From: a virus | Taxonomy: Duplodnaviria; Heunggongvirae; Uroviricota; Caudoviricetes | DNA: 64,000 bases | IMG/VR virus record: IMGVR_UViG_3300041405_000130 | Direction: 5' to 3' (one strand) | In this document: one piece after another, positions 21,417-55,449 of the stretch | Position numbering within the stretch: position 1 is the first letter of the stretch | Layout: every line of letters starts with the position of its first letter | Notes under the pieces: model-generated | What the model saw: the letters and a program-made list of their open reading frames with translations, nothing else | Database searches by the model: none | What the model was told of the DNA's origin: nothing | Translations under genes and position numbers: made by a program

Positions 21417-21633
21417 GTTGCACTTGATCCTTAGTAACGTAAAAGTCAACCCCTGCAGCGTTCTTGACGTTGAGGGTATCGCCCAGGTCTTCCAGCAGTT
21501 CCAAAGCATCACCTTTGTGTGCCAAGGTACAACCGCCTTCCATCTCTCCAAAAGAGAACTTGATGTCTTCTTTAGCTGTTAATGTCATTCGCCCAGAGAT
21601 CCTTGTTAAAACCGCCAGTGTTGTGCTCGACAC
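21409..21633 (-). CDS. Hypothetical protein (74 aa)
   Basis: ORF. Confidence 0.45.
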   Translation of the reverse strand: MSSTTLAVLTRISGRMTLTAKEDIKFSFGEMEGGCTLAHKGDALELLEDLGDTLNVKNAAGVDFYVTKDQVQHG

Positions 21634-21919
21634 CCGACTTGGAAATCAGCATTTCGATTTCCGCATGGATGTCGGCCAGTTGGTAGATCAAATCAGCACG
21701 GCGCAGTTTCTCCGCAGAGAAGCCAGCAACGCGTTCCGCTTGGAATGCCAGATGGAAAATGGATTCAGCGGTTTGGCCAGTGGTATCGATACCTACCCGA
21801 CTGATGATGCGCACAGTCTTCAGGTAAGTGAGGGTATGGATATTCTTGTTCAGATAATCCACTTCCAGATCGATACCGTAAACCTGACTGATGTATTCTT
21901 GAATGTTATCAAATTGCAT
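21572..21919 (-). CDS. Hypothetical protein (115 aa)
   Basis: ORF. Confidence 0.5.
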   Translation of the reverse strand: MQFDNIQEYISQVYGIDLEVDYLNKNIHTLTYLKTVRIISRVGIDTTGQTAESIFHLAFQAERVAGFSAEKLRRADLIYQLADIHAEIEMLISKSGVEHNTGGFNKDLWANDINS

Positions 21920-28881: not shown

Positions 28882-28912
28882 GTAATATAGGCTTTTAAAT
28901 AGTTTAAATCAA
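28882..28912 (-). promoter_or_regulatory. Sigma70-like promoter (minus: TTGATT-17 bp-TATATT AC)
   Basis: -35 TTGATT, 17-nt spacer, -10 TATATT; ~30 nt upstream of ATG 28863 and directly downstream of the terminator. Confidence 0.6.
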
Positions 28913-29579: not shown

Positions 29580-30023
29580 CTAGCTATTAATGTCAGCGCA
29601 ATGGCTGTCCCAGTATGTTACTAAACCAAAATCAATGACCTCATGAGGGGGATTGATGGACTCTCCTCCTTCATCGAGCAACTGCATGTTGCACTCATCG
29701 ATTGTGTCTAATACCATCCTGACACCTATCCGCATGCATTCAATTGCATCCGGTGTTACGCTAGCCATTTCTGTTAATCCATCTAGCCGATCTTCGATGT
29801 GCTGAACAAACAACCCTTGCGACGCTCGAGTTCCAGCAATCTTAGCGTTCTCTTCACCCTTGGTTCCGACTATCTGCAAGATATGTGCATCGATATCCTG
29901 CGTCAAGTCAATACCGTCTAGCTTAGAACTCGCTATGAAGTTACGCAACTTGTTTCTTTCAAAAGCACATTCAGCTTCGGGCATGACAACCTCAACTGTT
30001 GATATAGCTAGACCACCGATCAA
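29580..30023 (-). CDS. Small acidic protein, member of the C-terminal -(I/V)NS family (..WDSHCADINS)
   Basis: ORF; shared C-terminal motif with five neighbours. Confidence 0.5.
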   Translation of the reverse strand: MIGGLAISTVEVVMPEAECAFERNKLRNFIASSKLDGIDLTQDIDAHILQIVGTKGEENAKIAGTRASQGLFVQHIEDRLDGLTEMASVTPDAIECMRIGVRMVLDTIDECNMQLLDEGGESINPPHEVIDFGLVTYWDSHCADINS

Positions 30024-30384
30024 TCATCGGAATCATATCCGGACCATGATCAGTAATCTGTACGTTGAGCATTCGATCATCGCCATCAATCAGCAACATG
30101 TTCTTGGTGTCGATGGCGTTGAACACACACTCAACACCACGGTTCATACCAGACCGGAAGGCCTGAGACATTGTAGAACCTTTATCGAACTTAGGTGGCA
30201 GCTGATCCAACACGTTAGCCTGAACTTCAGCAAAGAAGAAACCACGTGCCATCTCGGATTCTTCTTCTAGTTCTCTTTCCAGGTCGGCAACTATGGAGTA
30301 GGCTTTTTCAAGCTCTTCCTTAGTTACCTTTGAACGGTTATTCACAAGCAGAGTCCTCAATGATGGGTTCGATCTCGGTAACAC
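29992..30384 (-). CDS. Small acidic protein, C-terminal -INS family (..RWSSYINS)
   Basis: ORF. Confidence 0.5.
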   Translation of the reverse strand: MLPRSNPSLRTLLVNNRSKVTKEELEKAYSIVADLERELEEESEMARGFFFAEVQANVLDQLPPKFDKGSTMSQAFRSGMNRGVECVFNAIDTKNMLLIDGDDRMLNVQITDHGPDMIPMIDRWSSYINS

Positions 30385-30802
30385 TGATACGGTTGTAGAT
30401 TACTTGCAACGCAACCTGACCGCCTTCTAGTTGTTCCAGATCCATCCCGAAGTCGTATGCCACCAAATCCTTTTCATGGGACTCGTCAATGCCATCCAGC
30501 GAACTAGCGCTCCGGGCAAAGGTATCTACTACAGAGAACCGACCGAGCTTTTCAGCGTGGTCGTATTCCAGACAGATTGGGGTTTCGAGTTTTGCAACAA
30601 CATCAATGCCATGCTTCTTGTAACGGAAGCCAGTCAACCAGGTTGGTTTTGGCGTATGCACAACCTCAGGGAAATCAGCATCGACCCACTGCTTCAAGCC
30701 ACCACCGGTAGCATTGATGAGCCATTCCCACGTAGCGTAGGCAATGAGTCCGATAATCACGAGTGCAACAAGGCCGAGGGTAGCAGCAGGAGCGGTGAAC
30801 AT
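30338..30802 (-). CDS. Membrane-anchored protein (154 aa)
   Basis: N-terminal TM. Confidence 0.5.
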   Translation of the reverse strand: MFTAPAATLGLVALVIIGLIAYATWEWLINATGGGLKQWVDADFPEVVHTPKPTWLTGFRYKKHGIDVVAKLETPICLEYDHAEKLGRFSVVDTFARSASSLDGIDESHEKDLVAYDFGMDLEQLEGGQVALQVIYNRISVTEIEPIIEDSACE

Positions 30803-30972
30803 TTTTATTCCTTGGGGTCAGCTTAGACCAGTTTGAGAGACGAGGGCGATGTACAGTGCTCCAGCTAGAGCCAACCCCAATGGGTTACGATACTCGTAGA
30901 AGAAGGCAATAAGCGCGTGTTTCATTTTAGCAATCCAGAGGGGTTGTATACATACTGATACGCCGCCAGTAT

Positions 30973-31266
30973 TTATTCCTCAGAACGCTTATGCATGATT
31001 ACATCTCGAAATGTTTTGGGGTCATCCATTTCCCGAGAGTATGCAAATTCATGCCACTTATCATAGATCTCCATGGGGAGATGATTAGCTTCGGCCATTG
31101 TTCGAAATCCAAGAGTTATGCCCAAGATGATACCATGGCGAGTACCCTCGTGGTAATATATACAAGCAGTTGATGGATCGTTAGCTTCTGCGTATGATGG
31201 TCCCTGAGATTCCACGATCATGTTGTGGAACAGCTCTTGGTAATCAGCCATAGTGCAGGTCAACAT
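30973..31266 (-). CDS. Hypothetical protein (97 aa)
   Basis: ORF. Confidence 0.45.
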   Translation of the reverse strand: MLTCTMADYQELFHNMIVESQGPSYAEANDPSTACIYYHEGTRHGIILGITLGFRTMAEANHLPMEIYDKWHEFAYSREMDDPKTFRDVIMHKRSEE

Positions 31267-31537
31267 GTTTTTCGAAGCACGTAAGCATCACGTCATCTTT
31301 GATGTCATCTGCCTTTTCCATAGTGAGTGGTTCACCGGCCTTAGCAAAGTGACTGAAATAACCAATGGTCAATCGAGAACCTTCAATGAGCTGGGTAAGC
31401 GTATGTGCTTCGCCTGCCGAGTTATCATCCAAGTATTCAACCAAGCCACCAAAGAACTTATCTGGATCAGGAATCATTACAACCTCACAAAAGAAAACAA
31501 CAGAAAGCCTACCCCGAAGGGTAGGCGTTCTATTCAA
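31244..31537 (-). CDS. Hypothetical protein (97 aa)
   Basis: ORF. Confidence 0.45.
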   Translation of the reverse strand: MNRTPTLRGRLSVVFFCEVVMIPDPDKFFGGLVEYLDDNSAGEAHTLTQLIEGSRLTIGYFSHFAKAGEPLTMEKADDIKDDVMLTCFEKHVDLHYG

Positions 31538-31543
31538 GCAGAG

Positions 31544-32407
31544 TTACTTGTTGAAGATACGGTTCGAAAGACCAGCGCTGCCCATAGCCTCGTAAGGTAC
31601 GAAAACAGCAGCTTTGTTTTCCGCCATTTGACCTTGAACGTCCAGAGCTTTGTAAGCCAGCAACATTGGGCTCAGACCATCAGCAGTGATGGCGTTAGAG
31701 TCACGCAGGGTCTTGGCACGGGTCAGCTCGATATCACGGTCCAGTTGCGCAAGAGCCAGAGCGTTGGTACGCTTGGTGGTCTCGATCGCTTGCTGGTTGG
31801 TTTCAGTTTCGATAGCCAGACGACGTTCCGATTGCTTCTCGATAGCAACGGTGATAACATCAGGGTATTTCAAGTTACCCAGAGTAACGTTGGAAACTTC
31901 CAGAGGAGAGTTAGCCATTGCCTTCACCAGACGCTCACTGAGATCTTTGGTGATGTTATCGAAGTTAGCACCAACGTCTTCGGTCTTATACTTGCCCACA
32001 ACCGAACGGGATACCGATTGCACAACGTCTAGGCCATACACACCGTAGACTTGCTGCAGAGTAACGCGTTTGTCTTTCACTTGGATGTCGTTGAACATCT
32101 GGTTCAGGACTTTCTCGTTACCGCCGATGCGAGTACGGAAGCGAACATCGAAGGTCAGGTCGAGCTTGTCGTCCATCTTCACGGTGATGGTTTCAGCAAC
32201 GGTACGGGTACCAGTTTCCAGCAGGACCAGTTCATCACGGCCCCACAGGGTTTCTTTACCCGGTTCCAGGATTTCTTTGTTGTAGCCAGTAGTGGTCAGA
32301 ACCTTACCTTTGAAAGCAGGAGGAATGACTTCGAACGAGCAACCTTGCAGCGCAACGACAGCGATCATGGCGAGTGCAGCGGATTTGATTACAGACAACA
32401 GTTTCAT
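31544..32407 (-). CDS. SPFH/band-7 (prohibitin-like) domain lipoprotein
   Basis: Lipobox LQG-C signal peptide; the central region has an SPFH-like alternation of beta and long coiled-coil helix (QSERRLAIETETNQQAIETTKR...). Confidence 0.5.
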   Translation of the reverse strand: MKLLSVIKSAALAMIAVVALQGCSFEVIPPAFKGKVLTTTGYNKEILEPGKETLWGRDELVLLETGTRTVAETITVKMDDKLDLTFDVRFRTRIGGNEKVLNQMFNDIQVKDKRVTLQQVYGVYGLDVVQSVSRSVVGKYKTEDVGANFDNITKDLSERLVKAMANSPLEVSNVTLGNLKYPDVITVAIEKQSERRLAIETETNQQAIETTKRTNALALAQLDRDIELTRAKTLRDSNAITADGLSPMLLAYKALDVQGQMAENKAAVFVPYEAMGSAGLSNRIFNK

Positions 32408-32447
32408 GCAACTTTTCCTTTTGAATTCGATTTGTGTGCAGCGTGGT

Positions 32448-32792
32448 TTACTTGTTCAGATTGCCAGCGTCAATTTCTTTACGCAGTGCAGCGGCAGCTT
32501 CTTTTGCAGATTGTGGAGAAGCAGTTTCATGCTTCACCGGAGTGCTTTTTTCAGTCAGCGTACCGACTTGATCAAAGCGTGCACGATCGCCTTCGGTGTT
32601 ATGCACACCAACGTTAACGAACGTAAGCAGCCAGACCACTGGCAGAATGAACGTCCAGACCCAACGAGTACGTGGAGTGATCCAGGCCATCCATTCAGCT
32701 TTGCTGCGGATCAACCAGGTGAGAAACACTGCGAGCACAATCAGGCCCATTACGGCACCGATGACACTACCTTGCCAATATACTGGAAACAT
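32448..32792 (-). CDS. Membrane protein (114 aa)
   Basis: Two TM segments. Confidence 0.5.
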   Translation of the reverse strand: MFPVYWQGSVIGAVMGLIVLAVFLTWLIRSKAEWMAWITPRTRWVWTFILPVVWLLTFVNVGVHNTEGDRARFDQVGTLTEKSTPVKHETASPQSAKEAAAALRKEIDAGNLNK

Positions 32793-32801
32793 CTGTTTTC
32801 C

Positions 32802-33104
32802 TTAGGAGTTAATTGAAGCGGTCCATTCGTCGGACATCTGTTGATGCACGAGGTCATCAATAGTACCGTTTTGTGCATCAGCTACGGTGAAGAACCCGTG
32901 GGTATCAAACACCGACAGCGTTTGTCCTACTGTGCGATTGTAGAGCCCTTCCAATGCACCAAGAACACTTTCTTTGGTGAACGCTTCATTACCAGCGCCA
33001 CCCTCGTCGACGCGTGCATCTTTGTATGCATCACAAACGAGTTGATCACGATCCTGGCTAAGCTTATCCAACATGCCAGCTTCTTTCAGGGTGACGGCCA
33101 TCAA
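32802..33104 (-). CDS. Small acidic protein, C-terminal -INS family (..DEWTASINS)
   Basis: ORF; TGATG coupling with the upstream gene. Confidence 0.5.
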   Translation of the reverse strand: MMAVTLKEAGMLDKLSQDRDQLVCDAYKDARVDEGGAGNEAFTKESVLGALEGLYNRTVGQTLSVFDTHGFFTVADAQNGTIDDLVHQQMSDEWTASINS

Positions 33105-33775
33105 GAGTTAACTGCTTCTGACCAGGATTCGGTCAGTGCAGCGGACAGGCCTTGAACAGTAGAGATACCACCGGAAGCGAAGGCTTCTTCCAGGACGCTG
33201 ACGGTACCAACGATTGCGGTATCGACAGCAGTAGCGACGGTGAGTTCGCCATTGGCAGCAGAGCGAACAGCGTTGATGGATGCCAGTACTACGGCATTGT
33301 TCTTATCAGTGGTGTTTCCGGTAGCAGCTTCAGTCACGACATGATTCCTTGTTTGAGTATCCCAGAGGTTCAGGTGAACACCCCAGAGTTCGGTATGGTT
33401 TGCAACCATAGCGACTTTGTTGTTGATTATGCACGCGGTATCGGTAATGGCGTCTTGGACGGCACCACGGATTACTGCATGGTATTGCAGAGGCAAGTGA
33501 TTTTTTGCACGGTCCACGATAATATCGCGTTGGCGTTTCAAACCATTTCGGAGTGGTTCCAGTGCATATGAAGGTTCTTCATAAGCAGTCCATGACATTT
33601 CACCGTCACGGGAAGGATGTGGAATACCTAGCTCATTAAGCTCTTTGGCTATGTAGTAATCCAGGTTATGGTCATCATCCTCAGCACTCTCCCATACCTC
33701 TTCACTAACTAGGGGTTCCAGGGGCAAAGAAATCCTCCAGTGATACTTTCTCCTCGGCTCGATGGATTGCACCAA
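33101..33775 (-). CDS. Acidic protein (224 aa), C-terminal -VNS family (..ESWSEAVNS)
   Basis: ORF. Confidence 0.55.
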   Translation of the reverse strand: MVQSIEPRRKYHWRISLPLEPLVSEEVWESAEDDDHNLDYYIAKELNELGIPHPSRDGEMSWTAYEEPSYALEPLRNGLKRQRDIIVDRAKNHLPLQYHAVIRGAVQDAITDTACIINNKVAMVANHTELWGVHLNLWDTQTRNHVVTEAATGNTTDKNNAVVLASINAVRSAANGELTVATAVDTAIVGTVSVLEEAFASGGISTVQGLSAALTESWSEAVNS

Positions 33776-33947
33776 TTGCTTGGGTAATACGATCTTTTGT
33801 TCCGTGGAAAAGAATACCTGCTTTGGTTAGTGCATCCAGCGTAGCTTCTACGCCAGGAGCCAGTCGTTCGAAATCATCTTCATCCAGAGATCGGCTCCAA
33901 TCAATCAGTTCACGAGCCGCAACATCAATCTCGTTCTGACGATGGCC
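33705..33947 (-). CDS. Hypothetical protein (~80 aa; start at ATG 33947, TAATG-coupled)
   Basis: Start moved from the ORF-track position 34007 to avoid a 58-nt overlap. Confidence 0.45.
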   Translation of the reverse strand, partial: GHRQNEIDVAARELIDWSRSLDEDDFERLAPGVEATLDALTKAGILFHGTKDRITQAIGAIHRAEEKVSLEDFFAPGTPS

Positions 33948-33949
33948 CA

Positions 33950-34210
33950 TTACGAATTGACTTCTTCGATGAAACGATCGGCAGCACCCATGAACTCGGT
34001 TGCGCAACCACCAGCCGATACTTCCAGGCAGAAAGCGTTCTCGTAGGTACGAGCGGTTTCAGCGATGGCGTGGATGATACCTTGCTCTTGCGGCATGGCT
34101 TCTGCTTCGATACGGATACCGACCAGACTGTCCAGAATTTCGCGTTGTTTGTTGTCGTTGGCTTCAGCTACGCCAGCTACTAGTTCATCAGCGTTTTCGA
34201 TAGTGCTCAT
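33950..34210 (-). CDS. Small acidic protein, C-terminal -VNS family (..RFIEEVNS)
   Basis: ORF. Confidence 0.5.
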   Translation of the reverse strand: MSTIENADELVAGVAEANDNKQREILDSLVGIRIEAEAMPQEQGIIHAIAETARTYENAFCLEVSAGGCATEFMGAADRFIEEVNS

Positions 34211-34219
34211 TGCATGTCC

Positions 34220-34513
34220 TTACGAATTGATTGCAGCGATGTATGCTTCCGATAACTCATCGTTATCAAAGAAGGGTTGGTCACCCAGTTTAACCCCTGG
34301 TGGTTCATGAGGGAAAATTTGGGCTTGTGACTCGATGGCTTGAAGCGTCAACAGCGTGGTGTCTTGGATTGCCCCTTTAACCGCTACTGCTTGATCAATA
34401 GTAAAACCAAGATCTTGGTCATCGAGTTTGTCTTGAACTTGTTGGTTTGCATCAAGTAGATCAGCGAGCAGCTTTTCGCGGGCGTTGATCATACCAGTGG
34501 TGCGTGTGCTCAT
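34220..34513 (-). CDS. Small acidic protein, C-terminal -INS family (..EAYIAAINS)
   Basis: ORF. Confidence 0.5.
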   Translation of the reverse strand: MSTRTTGMINAREKLLADLLDANQQVQDKLDDQDLGFTIDQAVAVKGAIQDTTLLTLQAIESQAQIFPHEPPGVKLGDQPFFDNDELSEAYIAAINS

Positions 34514-36443: not shown

Positions 36444-36470
36444 AGTAATATAGATCTGAGATTTTTTGGA
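36444..36470 (-). promoter_or_regulatory. Promoter-like motif (minus: AAAAAATCTCAGATCTATATTACTTG)
   Basis: AATCTNANATCTATATTAC family. Confidence 0.5.
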
Positions 36471-52619: not shown

Positions 52620-53996
52620 TTATGCGGCGGCTGCAATATCCAGTTGTTGGGAAGCATTAGCCGCTTTCTTTTTGATAGGTGGGCGCGGTGGCTCTGGTTG
52701 TAGAGCATAGTTCTCCGCGACGTATTTGTCATCCAACGTATCCAGCTTATCAATGAAGGCCAGATGATCGTCAGGGTGTTCCATGAAGATCCCTGCCAAA
52801 GTAGAAGCGGGAACATCTGGGTACACTACATTACGATCGTAAGTAGGATTATCATACATCGAGTCAATGTAACGCTTGATCTCAGGGTCTTTCAACGGCA
52901 ACACTTCGATCAGTTTGTTCACACGGGACGGACGGTAGACCGCTGGGTCGATCAGTTCCAAGTGGTTAGTAGTCAGGATGATAATGATGTCATCCAGTTC
53001 TACAACGCCTTGTAGGACGTTGAGGAAGGTACTGAGTTGAATCTCACAGTCCATCAACAACGCTTCTGGTTTCTTATCAGCACTGCCGCCATCGAAATCA
53101 GACATTTCGACTTTCTTAGCACCAACCCGTCGGTGCAAAGATTTCACATCATCAAAGTCTTCAATGACCAACATATCGCCAGGAGACAGTTTACCCATCA
53201 GATCCACTAACTGACGACCATGGGAAGCCAGATTGAGGAAGTGGATGTCTCGCTTGTACTTACGACCAGCCCGTTTGATCAACGAAGTTTTACCAGTACC
53301 GGGAGGACCGTGCAACACGATGGTGTGCTTGTAAGCCAAACCACGTTTACGGTACCAAGCTTCGTTCTTCATGTACCAGTCGATAGAGCCAAAGAAATCT
53401 TTCTCTACTTCAGGATCAATGATCAATGTTTCGTCTGCATCTAAACGCAACCGGCCTTGGAAGTTCCAACCGTCATTGGCTGGACCATAGATTCGGATGG
53501 ACTTTTTGCATGGCTTGATTCGGAACTCTTCTACCAGTTCTTCAAATGGAGCAGTAGTACGACCGAACGTATAAAGCGTAAACTCTTCTTTCTCGATATC
53601 GGTACCGGAAGAATTCAAACGTACCACGTTAAACCAGAAGTAGCGACCTTTCCAGACGAACCAGTGAAAGCCAGTACCAGGACCAAAGGCTGGATTATCT
53701 CGATCGAATGTAACACGACGATTACGATCGTACTTAGCCCATTTCGACTTGGAGAACCATCGCATAAACTCGATGTAGTTCTGCATGTCCATGGAATAAG
53801 AACCAGCACGAGTGAAGGTCATTGACGAGATGGTGTTCCGTTTAATGAAACTCCAGATCGTTCTGGGAATGGTACGTCCCAGATAACCCAACAAGCCCAT
53901 AAGGCCCAAGGTCATAAAACCTTTTACCGTTGAGTCTCCCGAACTCAACATTTCTAGCGTCTTGTGAAAGAACGCCAAAATATCTGTTACAAGCAT
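52620..53996 (-). CDS. BCS1-like membrane-anchored AAA+ ATPase
   Basis: N-terminal TM (MTLGLMGLLGYLG), Walker A GPPGTGKTS, Walker B MLVIEDFDD (BCS1-type IEDxD), Arg-finger region; 458 aa. Confidence 0.65.
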   Translation of the reverse strand: MLVTDILAFFHKTLEMLSSGDSTVKGFMTLGLMGLLGYLGRTIPRTIWSFIKRNTISSMTFTRAGSYSMDMQNYIEFMRWFSKSKWAKYDRNRRVTFDRDNPAFGPGTGFHWFVWKGRYFWFNVVRLNSSGTDIEKEEFTLYTFGRTTAPFEELVEEFRIKPCKKSIRIYGPANDGWNFQGRLRLDADETLIIDPEVEKDFFGSIDWYMKNEAWYRKRGLAYKHTIVLHGPPGTGKTSLIKRAGRKYKRDIHFLNLASHGRQLVDLMGKLSPGDMLVIEDFDDVKSLHRRVGAKKVEMSDFDGGSADKKPEALLMDCEIQLSTFLNVLQGVVELDDIIIILTTNHLELIDPAVYRPSRVNKLIEVLPLKDPEIKRYIDSMYDNPTYDRNVVYPDVPASTLAGIFMEHPDDHLAFIDKLDTLDDKYVAENYALQPEPPRPPIKKKAANASQQLDIAAAA

Positions 53997-54706
53997 TATT
54001 CCGCCCCAGGCATCAGCAGTACTGTTGTGTCGAAACCTTCGGCTCGGACATAGTCAAAGAAAGGATCTTCCAAGCCTACCTCTTCACCAGGTTCGCATTT
54101 TTCTTTCAGGTGATTATCGCAATAAACGATAGCGTTTTCTGTTTGGCGTTTTACCAAACGGAAGAAATCCGCTGTAAGTAACAGCACCACAGTGATTGTC
54201 AAGTGTTTGGTAGTACGCGGTATCGACCACTTGTGATCTTCGCGCTCATCCAGGCCAACCCCAACTACGATCATGTCGAAGTTTTCACGGAGTTGGTCAT
54301 AACCGAGGCGTTGTTGTGAACGGAGACCTTCTAATTGGACGTCCAAACCCCAGCTCATTACGTGGTTGATGGTAGCGGCATGAATCATTTCATGAATGGC
54401 ACCATACGAATTTTCGGCGTCGTTTAGATCGGGCCAATACGTACGGATGTTTTCATGCATAACCCACAGATTGCCATCTGCCATTCGACTCATGGGAACC
54501 GTACGGATGTTAACCTGTACGAGTTCTTTAGAATCGATCGACAATGCTTCAGGCATCCACGCCAGTTTGTCGTACATCAGATCATTCAGATCGTACCGAT
54601 TGATCGGAGCAAACGCTGGTTTGTCGGCAATGAAATGAAAGATACCAGCTATGCGTGGCCGGGAAGAGCTTTGTACAATGTGAGCCTTTTGTTCAACCAA
54701 ATTCAC
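53996..54706 (-). CDS. Putative zinc metalloprotease (HExxH, metzincin-like HEMIHAATINH spacing)
   Basis: HEMIH with a third His at +10; GTG start with strong GAAGGAGG RBS; translationally coupled between the SspB-like and AAA genes. Confidence 0.45.
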   Translation of the reverse strand: MNLVEQKAHIVQSSSRPRIAGIFHFIADKPAFAPINRYDLNDLMYDKLAWMPEALSIDSKELVQVNIRTVPMSRMADGNLWVMHENIRTYWPDLNDAENSYGAIHEMIHAATINHVMSWGLDVQLEGLRSQQRLGYDQLRENFDMIVVGVGLDEREDHKWSIPRTTKHLTITVVLLLTADFFRLVKRQTENAIVYCDNHLKEKCEPGEEVGLEDPFFDYVRAEGFDTTVLLMPGAE

Positions 54707-55449
54707 GCTTTGCCTCCTTCAATTACACGCCAGTTGTTAGGTATAGCGCGTTTGACTTTTGCTGCTGGCAGTTGTGTGCCATTTACATTGCCGAAGTTCA
54801 GTAATGGTGCAGGTTGTTCTTTTGCAACCGGTTTTGCAGGACGTTGTGCCAGGGGCTTACGACGCATGAGTTCCACATTGGTCGGCAGTTTATTACCTTC
54901 CTCATCATGAGTAGCAATTTCCACACCATGTACAGCGTACGGAGAATCTTCAATAGCCTTTGCAGCTTTGAATGGAGGTGGAGTGGTATCTTGAGCAGAA
55001 CCTGGGAATGTCCCGCCACCTTCGAAAGCATTCAACTGAGGAATGCCTTCTTCTTCAAACATTTTGTGGAGATCTTGCATTTGTTTCACCCCGAGCAATT
55101 CACGCTCGAAGTTAGGAATGGGGAGAATGCTTTCGTAGTTCTCTGTGGTTGGTACAGCGAAGCCCAGTACTGCTTCGTACGGAACTTCCAGATAAACATC
55201 AGCACCATTATAGCCACACTGAAAACTGAAGTTGTCTTCATTGTAACGGAAATTGCGAGTTGCGTTTGCAGCGATATTCAGACGGATCTGGTATAACCCG
55301 TTGATCTCTGGTTCTAACAGCCCGACATCAAACATCCGAGCATCGGTGATGATGTGAATACGACGGGACATGTCCATGTCGACGAACCATTGAATCATGG
55401 TATTCATAATTGCGCGAGTCATGTTCAGCTCAGGTGCTACTTGTTGCAT
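54703..55449 (-). CDS. SspB-like ClpXP specificity-enhancing adaptor homologue
   Basis: N-terminal domain aligns with SspB residues 10-100 (W..D...H..VD.....V.VP.....G.I.LNIA..A..N......V.F.....G......VP..AVL.....EN); Pro-rich linker and a C-terminal ..WRVIEGGKA tail reminiscent of the SspB ClpX-binding LRVVK. Confidence 0.55.
   Translation of the reverse strand: MQQVAPELNMTRAIMNTMIQWFVDMDMSRRIHIITDARMFDVGLLEPEINGLYQIRLNIAANATRNFRYNEDNFSFQCGYNGADVYLEVPYEAVLGFAVPTTENYESILPIPNFERELLGVKQMQDLHKMFEEEGIPQLNAFEGGGTFPGSAQDTTPPPFKAAKAIEDSPYAVHGVEIATHDEEGNKLPTNVELMRRKPLAQRPAKPVAKEQPAPLLNFGNVNGTQLPAAKVKRAIPNNWRVIEGGKA

Follow-up and report, generated by a model that had tools for sequence, protein, structure and literature searches.

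Short sequences at the extreme C-terminus of proteins are known to act as docking or address elements. The C-terminal tip of SSB (DDDIPF-COOH) and that of T7 gp2.5 are acidic docking tails, PTS1 is a C-terminal tripeptide that serves as a targeting signal, and ssrA/SspB/ClpXP is a third system built on a short C-terminal sequence. In addition, small, tandemly amplified and fast-diverging early phage proteins with roles in host takeover or anti-defence are a known general class. Here we analyze a stretch of 64,000 nucleotides from a virus of the class Caudoviricetes (IMG/VR record IMGVR_UViG_3300041405_000130), called the window throughout, in which seven small acidic proteins share a C-terminal tail that ends in [IV]NS-COOH. 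We suggest that this tail is a docking element for one invariant, putative partner. The suggestion is drawn from the pattern of conservation, and we put its probability at about 0.45. A conserved C-terminal docking tail is a known kind of feature; what is new is this candidate instance, on a multigene family of early phage proteins.

The tail resembles each of these systems in part. As in ssrA/SspB/ClpXP, a short sequence at the extreme C-terminus is found on different proteins and could have one receptor, and an SspB-like adaptor is encoded in the same genome. However, ssrA is added by tmRNA and ends in LAA, whereas the tail described here is genome-encoded, ends in N-[ST], is carried mostly by paralogs and is known from sequence alone. 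With the SSB tip and T7 gp2.5 it has in common an acidic segment followed by hydrophobic end residues, a fixed end position at which the carboxylate may matter, and the logic of a hub with its clients. The topology is the reverse, with many tail carriers and one presumed partner here; the sequences are unrelated and there is no DNA-binding domain. PTS1 is alike in its near-invariant tripeptide at the exact C-terminus with weaker preferences upstream, but it is a targeting signal, and the INS ending is absent from known compartment residents. Finally, the seven proteins look like members of a tandem early-protein family, being small, acidic, plausibly early, arranged in tandem, present in 5-10 copies, diverged in their bodies and without database annotation. 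Such families normally lack an invariant extreme C-terminus, whereas one is present here.

The tail-bearing genes of the window, named A to G, all lie on the minus strand (ORF, open reading frame):

29580-29984 (ORF 29580-30023), minus strand: protein A, 134 residues from MPEAECAF..., ending ...YWDSHCADINS; an ABH-type domain with an N-terminal YhfG-like segment.
29992-30345 (ORF 29992-30384; start at 30345 probable), minus strand: protein B, 117 residues, ending ...IDRWSSYINS; an ABH-type domain.
32802-33104, minus strand: protein C, about 99 residues, ending ...SDEWTASINS; its start overlaps the stop codon of D.
33101-33727 (ORF 33101-33775), minus strand: protein D, 208 residues, ending ...TESWSEAVNS; an N-terminal extension and a C-terminal domain homologous to E.
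33950-34210, minus strand: protein E, 86 residues, ending ...ADRFIEEVNS.
34220-34513, minus strand: protein F, 97 residues, ending ...SEAYIAAINS.
21572-21919, minus strand: protein G, 115 residues, ending ...KDLWANDINS; 8 kb from the cluster.

Orthologs gave the probable starts of A at 29984 (from P0004) and of B at 30345, as well as the start of D at 33727. P0022 is 100% identical to D, and P0001 is 98% identical to B. The initial annotation had described A-F as six neighboring proteins with a C-terminal W-x3-[IV]NS motif. All six ORFs are present on the minus strand with the endings it had quoted, every one of them [IV]NS, but G (21572-21919) had been overlooked. The tryptophan holds less widely than described. 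It is exact in B, C and D, and also in G, but position -7 is phenylalanine in E, tyrosine in F and histidine in A, where the tryptophan is at -10. All seven proteins (7/7) have [IV]-N-[ST]-stop with an aromatic residue or histidine at -7, and it is by this rule that membership of what we call the INS-tail superfamily is defined; the superfamily is a product of this analysis and not a curated family. A-F have a pI of 4.1-4.9, and the seven proteins, in which no signal peptide is seen by eye, can be described as small, acidic and cytosolic.

The identity of the motif is at the protein level, as had been claimed, since codons and stop codons vary between the genes. The Ile/Val codons are ATT, ATC, GTT and GTC, and Asn is encoded by AAT or AAC. 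Ser is encoded by AGC, AGT, TCC, TCT and TCG, so that both the AGY and the TCN families are used, and TAG, TGA and TAA all occur as stop codons. In a six-frame scan of the window, 7/290 ORFs of at least 60 residues have an [IV]NS ending, all of them on the coding strand and none in spurious frames, against 0.037 expected per 108 genes from the amino-acid composition of the window. The Poisson probability of seven such endings is about 2e-14 under the assumption of independence, though the seven cases are not fully independent since most carriers are paralogs. Two larger window proteins contain WHLKVNS and FAHVINS internally, and these we treat as chance.

Within each of the seven tail families, the last three residues are 0.89 identical and the body 0.47. 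In 50 control families, which are other conserved small-protein families of the same genomes, the corresponding values are 0.29 and 0.47 (Mann-Whitney P=7.6e-9). The C-terminus is the least conserved part in control families and the most conserved part in tail families, which bears out the claim that the motif is under selection. Between the seven window proteins, identity is 0.84 over the last three residues, 0.46 over the last seven and 0.33 over the last 12, and it falls to 0.06 at positions -40 to -13 when the proteins are anchored at their ends. No body column is invariant across the families in our alignments, although a tail that packs against its own body or against a sister subunit should have a conserved pocket to match.

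With these data, the idea that the shared ending is due to chance or to the DNA itself, for example a repeated element or a signal for termination or re-initiation, is left with a negligible probability. The adjacency of the genes speaks for it, and nothing else does. Every motif position varies in codon, both serine families and three stop codons are used, only 0.04 such endings are expected, and the ending is kept in distant relatives whose DNA differs. We thus regard this explanation as already refuted by the codon variation, the expected count and the comparison with control families.

The window is syntenic with Pseudomonas phage D6, which has a genome of 307 kb and is its sole nucleotide-level relative among deposited phages. 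The D6 annotation includes PhuZ and RNA polymerase (RNAP) subunits, and D6 shares with Psa21 the presence of genes for PhuZ and for split RNA polymerases (PMC11139720). The D6 protein WDS62382 matches phiPA3 PhuN (E=1e-175) and chimallin (3e-147); the chimallin gene itself lies outside the window. Because of the synteny with D6, together with the PhuZ, split RNA polymerases and chimallin match of that phage, we assign the window to a jumbo phage of Pseudomonas that forms a nucleus and belongs to the chimalliviruses (Chimalliviridae), in the D6/Psa21 clade.

The clusters of relatives (loci L002-L011) were fetched with one gene of the neighborhood as the synteny anchor, which is embedded in the cluster and is not a member of the family:

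31544-32407, minus strand: SPFH/band-7 lipoprotein gene (Pfam Band_7 E=1.2e-13; lipobox LQGC).

Across more than 10 related genomes we find eight ortholog groups, A-G and an additional group H, and in all of them [IV]N[ST] stands at the exact C-terminus; the search of other phage genomes that had been proposed thus recovers the same ending. Group H directly follows the SPFH gene in some genomes and is missing from this window. Each genome has 5 to 10 tail-bearing copies within about 11 kb. The orthologs of F (P0017, P0020 and P0023-25) all end in IN[ST], and those of G in D6, Psa21 and RVTF4 retain INS. PA1C is more distant, and its syntenic genes show a relaxed form of the motif, with the endings VNS, VNT (three times), VNQ and VNN. 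Word-indexed searches of an index of 5.8 billion proteins gave 27 homologs (P0001-P0027), from close relatives only, and all of them share the ending. The A/B/H profile, searched against 1.84 billion representatives, gave 13 matches (E<1e-3), all with [IV]N[ST] and including minimal versions of 81 residues. With only these 27 homologs and 13 profile matches, the family is tiny and narrowly distributed. A logo of 71 non-redundant members has L/M/I at -11, D/E at -9, W/Y/F(H) at -7, A/I/V at -6, I/V at -3, an invariant N at -2 and S/T at -1, followed by the stop codon.

Very recent local duplications are seen in some relatives, with three consecutive A-like copies or two F-like copies (L021 8001-8851; L024 4086-4692), which shows that the family is still expanding and contracting. 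The seven genes belong to a lineage-specific, fast-evolving family of variable copy number that is located in early-type units of the D6/Psa21/RVTF4 clade. Our literature search found no description of the INS motif or of the family.

For comparison of the bodies, the last eight residues were stripped from both the profiles and the database. In these tail-less searches A matches B (E=2e-3), B and H match reciprocally (down to 1e-5) and D matches E (4e-6). Iterated searches recruited only tail-bearing ORFs among 3412, with no false recruit. They merge A, B and H into one group and D and E into another, while C, F and G remain apart. By hhalign, A and B pair at P=1.6e-5, and still at 1.6e-4 once the tail is taken off. 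Against an empirical null of 350 comparisons between tail and control families, made with tail-less profiles, the tail-family pairs are shifted upward (P=4e-7), with empirical p values of 0.003 for F-C, 0.009 for F-E, 0.03 for F-D and 0.046 for F-A. The alignments share a layout of helix, helix, short extended segment and tail. We suggest that A-F and H arose by tandem duplication of a helical domain of about 80 residues and represent a single superfamily of great divergence, to which C and F are linked weakly. For G, no membership of this superfamily is detectable, as its body gave no cross-matches with or without the tail and every hhalign pair with G is at the level of the null.

The description of the proteins as otherwise divergent can therefore be kept only in part. 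A/B and D/E are clear paralogs and C and F are weakly joined to them, so that much of the tail sharing reflects descent within a tandem family. The divergence does hold for G and for the family of phiKZ gp186, which carry the ending on bodies without detectable similarity, and it is because of these that the idea of a portable tag is still alive.

This second family came from scans of whole genomes. In the complete D6 genome [IV]NS-COOH is found in 7/~410 coding sequences, which are the orthologs of B-G and one further protein at 102434-102856, here called J. In the complete phiKZ genome, gp186 is the sole annotated protein with an [IV]N[ST] ending (1/~370). The genome-wide scan of C-termini, named in the initial annotation as a test that could refute its proposal, thus upholds the enrichment. 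No enzyme and no virion or structural protein has an [IV]NS-type ending in the D6 or phiKZ annotations. J is the ortholog of phiKZ gp186 (NC_004629 200099-200503), phiPA3 gp222 and 201phi2-1 gp283 (phrog_16459). Its endings are FANINS in D6, IANINS in Psa21, RVTF4 FAAINS, PA1C FEEVNT, Phabio FDDISS, phiPA3 FDEISN and phiKZ FFEDVNS. In each clade J has the ending that is commonest among the paralogs, INS in D6/Psa21/RVTF4 and VNT in PA1C. By hhalign, the J body has no relation to the INS families.

An antisense oligonucleotide screen, the only literature on gp186 that we found, reported that PHIKZ186 is expressed early and that its knock-down strongly lowers plaque counts (bioRxiv 10.1101/2024.07.31.605949). 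The gp186 family is thus like the window proteins in its ending and early expression, with importance for plaque formation, but its body is unrelated to A-F. Another phiKZ protein, gp258 (phrog_11061), is the only one of that phage that resembles the syntenic genes of PA1C. It is related to a member of the PA1C cluster and contains YFIFVN, but it ends in ...YFIFVNRG, two residues beyond VN.

Known families and folds offer little guidance. For the seven proteins, Pfam gave nothing above its cutoffs, PHROGs nothing with E<0.04 and sequence-profile searches of PDB no match, and Foldseek of the B model against PDB found nothing at E<1. The N-terminus of A has a sub-threshold match to Pfam YhfG, a Fic antitoxin (E=6.8e-4, 19.9 bits against a cutoff of 22.6). 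This match covers residues of about 8-30, the segment AFERNKLRNFIASSKLDGIDL. The Psa21 ortholog of A has a precomputed PF10832 match, in which SSKLEG fits the Fic-inhibitory motif (S/T)xxxE(G/N). In A, a head that inhibits a Fic toxin may be joined to the tail domain. The AlphaFold2 (AF2) model of B has helices at 9-48, 61-80 and 101-115, with a predicted local distance difference test score (pLDDT) of 65, and that of D is all-helical with a pLDDT of 50; both were built from shallow alignments, and no fold can be assigned at such confidence. In both models the tail forms a terminal helix of low confidence (pLDDT about 32-47). Its hydrophobic positions are spaced i, i+4, i+8, and over the last 13 residues B, C, D and E have a moderately high hydrophobic moment.

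We infer a docking element because no body position co-conserves with the tail while the position of the stop codon is fixed, and because two unrelated bodies share the ending and J and the paralogs share a clade-specific 'dialect' of it. A tail of about 12 residues, predicted to be helical and moderately amphipathic in most members, would dock, its free carboxylate included. Specificity would differ from protein to protein through the variable bodies, as it does in adaptors, decoys or hub-client systems. The partner would read the tail and not the fold, as is suggested by the ending that the unrelated G and gp186 have in common. The copy number, 5-10 within about 11 kb, is typical of host-interaction genes. 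Several points weigh against this proposal. Common descent accounts for most of the sharing; portability is backed by G and J only, and either could be an over-diverged relative, with J perhaps partly a coincidental resemblance. J has its aromatic residue at -6, Phabio and phiPA3 end in ISS and ISN, and the extension of gp258 by two residues past VN means that a free carboxylate is not indispensable everywhere. The hydrophobic moment is unremarkable in A and G, and both AF2 models, at low confidence (pLDDT 65 and 50), are compatible with packing of the tail into the fold or with oligomerization.

Such packing is the basis of the explanation that we consider next, possible though on balance doubtful: the tail could be an intrinsic structural element without an external partner, the last helix either completing the fold or being swapped between subunits in homo- or hetero-oligomers. 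The tail would then have been kept as the least replaceable part of a fast-evolving fold. Most members are paralogs, the tail is helical in both AF2 models with the i, i+4, i+8 spacing, it is found in every detectable ABH homolog, and no recognizably different fold, such as an enzyme or a virion protein, carries it in D6 or phiKZ. However, the bodies have no conserved positions that could act as its partner, with 6% identity at -40 to -13, and the pLDDT of the tail is low. Packing within the molecule would hardly explain why N-[ST]-stop is invariant where similarity between the bodies is no longer detectable, and G and gp186 have the same ending on unrelated bodies. At the other extreme, the ending could serve Pseudomonas chimalliviruses as a C-terminal address tag that is encoded in the genome, portable and read by a dedicated receptor. 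We consider this unlikely; its most testable form has an SspB-like adaptor as the receptor:

54703-55449, minus strand: SspB-like adaptor gene, with an N-terminal SspB substrate-binding domain, a long P/A-rich linker and the C-terminal sequence ...WRVIEGGKA.

The initial annotation had pointed to an SspB-like gene, and the gene does exist in the window. The Pfam SspB match (E=2.5e-5, 24.8 bits) is under the gathering cutoff of 27, and phmmer against E. coli SspB gives E=3e-4. Homologs are found in D6, Psa21, RVTF4 and phiKZ, where gp232 (NC_004629 229299-230207; profile search E=1e-10) ends in ...LTVIKGGKK; phiKZ gp231, gp284 and gp285 were considered and are not SspB-like. We take the ends WRVIEGGKA, LRVIQGGKA and LTVIKGGKK to resemble the ClpX-binding sequence LRVVK (XB) of E. 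coli SspB.

In a specific version of the docking model, the tail would be a tag read by this adaptor, which would be tethered to host ClpX through its LRVI/LTVI-GGK end. ClpXP would receive the tagged early proteins in this way and remove them at a set time, or else these proteins would act as competitors of other substrates. The adaptor has the architecture of SspB, with its substrate-binding domain, long linker and XB-like C-terminus, and it contains the only peptide-tail-binding domain recognized by the Pfam scan among the 83 proteins of the window. The G tail, ANDINS, resembles the SspB-binding part of ssrA, AANDENY. The RAY homolog of the SspB-like protein is cytoplasmic (PMC10299810), the location that is also expected of the tail-bearing proteins. 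Homologs also occur wherever tail-bearing proteins are found, but this co-occurrence has no discriminating power since both are present in every genome examined; a clade-specific co-occurrence had been considered and was dropped when the sensitive profile search found phiKZ gp232. Further points against the adaptor are its sub-threshold Pfam score and the position of its gene, which is 20 kb away in the window and elsewhere in phiKZ. The tails end in [IV]N[ST] after acidic residues, and to our knowledge [IV]NS-COOH matches no class of ClpX C-degron, neither the ssrA-like LAA nor the MuA-like RRKKAI. That the tail is read by this adaptor seems quite unlikely, though the SspB-like protein is the most testable candidate receptor of the tail. 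As a side observation, the gene at 52620-53996 (minus strand), two genes downstream of the SspB-like gene, encodes a protein with BCS1_N and AAA ATPase domains (Pfam 6.5e-12 and 4.7e-11). BCS1 is a translocase of folded proteins in mitochondria. Homologs of the window protein are widespread in jumbo phages, including phiKZ gp286; it ends in ...DIAAAA, and the D6 ortholog does not.

A very improbable reading is that the tail addresses proteins to the phage nucleus, the early infection vesicle or the capsid. Chimalliviruses do sort proteins between compartments, the logic of a C-terminal tripeptide recalls PTS1, and the cluster surrounds the SPFH lipoprotein gene and small membrane-protein genes. 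However, in D6 and phiKZ the ending is missing from the virion proteins and from known nuclear proteins (RNAP subunits, DNA polymerase and UvsX), and the tail-bearing proteins are acidic and not membrane-seeking. The C-terminus of chimallin is unrelated: mimicry of its tail is ruled out, as D6 chimallin ends in ...GATGLMY. A general signal for nuclear import or virion packaging is rejected, since the ending is on none of the enzymes or structural proteins of D6 or phiKZ. A review reports that cargo for import into the phage nucleus is selected via surface patches and not via terminal signals (PMC12908238).

The promoter-like motifs that head the units of the tail-bearing genes bear on when these genes would be expressed. 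Two early-promoter-like motifs flank the cluster:

36445-36452, minus strand: TATATTAC, the core of an early-promoter-like motif, upstream of the unit with F, E, D and C and, further downstream, B and A.
28882-28889, minus strand: early-promoter-like motif, directly downstream of the A/B pair and a Big_2 protein gene.

The window has 8 exact TATATTAC sites, all on the minus strand, against 1.35 expected. In 7 of the 8, the site is part of an extended motif, TTTAAA-N~12-AAAGNCTATATTAC, which lies between genes on the coding strand, with a start codon about 30-45 nt downstream of it (minus-strand positions 14784, 28889, 36452, 41416, 55494, 60532 and 63781). The eighth, at 31160, is within an ORF and without the extended motif, and it is probably due to chance. 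The core is also found upstream of phiKZ genes, and we take it to be the phiKZ early-promoter consensus. The extended motif probably marks early promoters of the virion RNA polymerase. The initial annotation had called the tail-bearing genes early, and the units headed by this phiKZ-type motif are in agreement with it; for the tail-bearing genes of the window the label is plausible. Our literature search on phage-nucleus C-terminal motifs, gp258 and TATATTAC found nothing relevant.

Other genes of the neighborhood are without the tail. A probable gene for 81 residues (33705-33950, minus strand) lies between E and D, its ATG overlapping the stop codon of E (TAATG). Its product ends in ...EDFFAPGTPS with no INS tail, has counterparts in L002 and L005, and gives sub-threshold matches to the B profile. 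The genes at 30338-30802 and 32448-32792 (both minus strand) encode small, membrane-protein-like products with hydrophobic N-terminal segments, and are interleaved with the tail-bearing genes and the SPFH gene. The SPFH gene is 87% identical to that of D6 in nucleotides and 90% in amino acids, and is far better kept than its neighbors. Homologs with 60% identity are found in unrelated 88-kb PAK_P3-like phages, which suggests that the SPFH gene has been exchanged between phage lineages. The window also encodes RtcB, an RNA ligase, a poly(A)/CCA-type nucleotidyltransferase with an HD domain, thymidylate synthase, PRPP synthetase and a NAPRTase-family enzyme (nicotinamide phosphoribosyltransferase in the D6 annotation). 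These enzymes constitute a block for tRNA repair and nucleotide/NAD salvage that is typical of jumbo phages.

For the majority of early genes in nucleus-forming jumbo phages, neither a function nor any feature in common is known. Here the last three to seven residues give a simple sequence rule that covers seven early proteins in D6 and one, gp186, in phiKZ. In other relatives the rule covers five to ten proteins within the 14-21 kb examined, depending on the genome. The gp186 protein is a direct handle on the motif in the model phage phiKZ. If the tail is a docking tag, it could lead to a hub of early infection, which might be a protease adaptor, a component of the shell or of import, or a host target, and it would provide a common mechanism for a whole set of orphan genes. 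If the tag is in addition portable, it would be a programmed proteolytic timer or a hub for the set of early proteins, including gp186 and the expandable host-interaction modules. Even if the tail is only an element of the fold, the proteins would still represent a new, narrowly distributed and rapidly expanding family whose C-terminus is its most conserved part.

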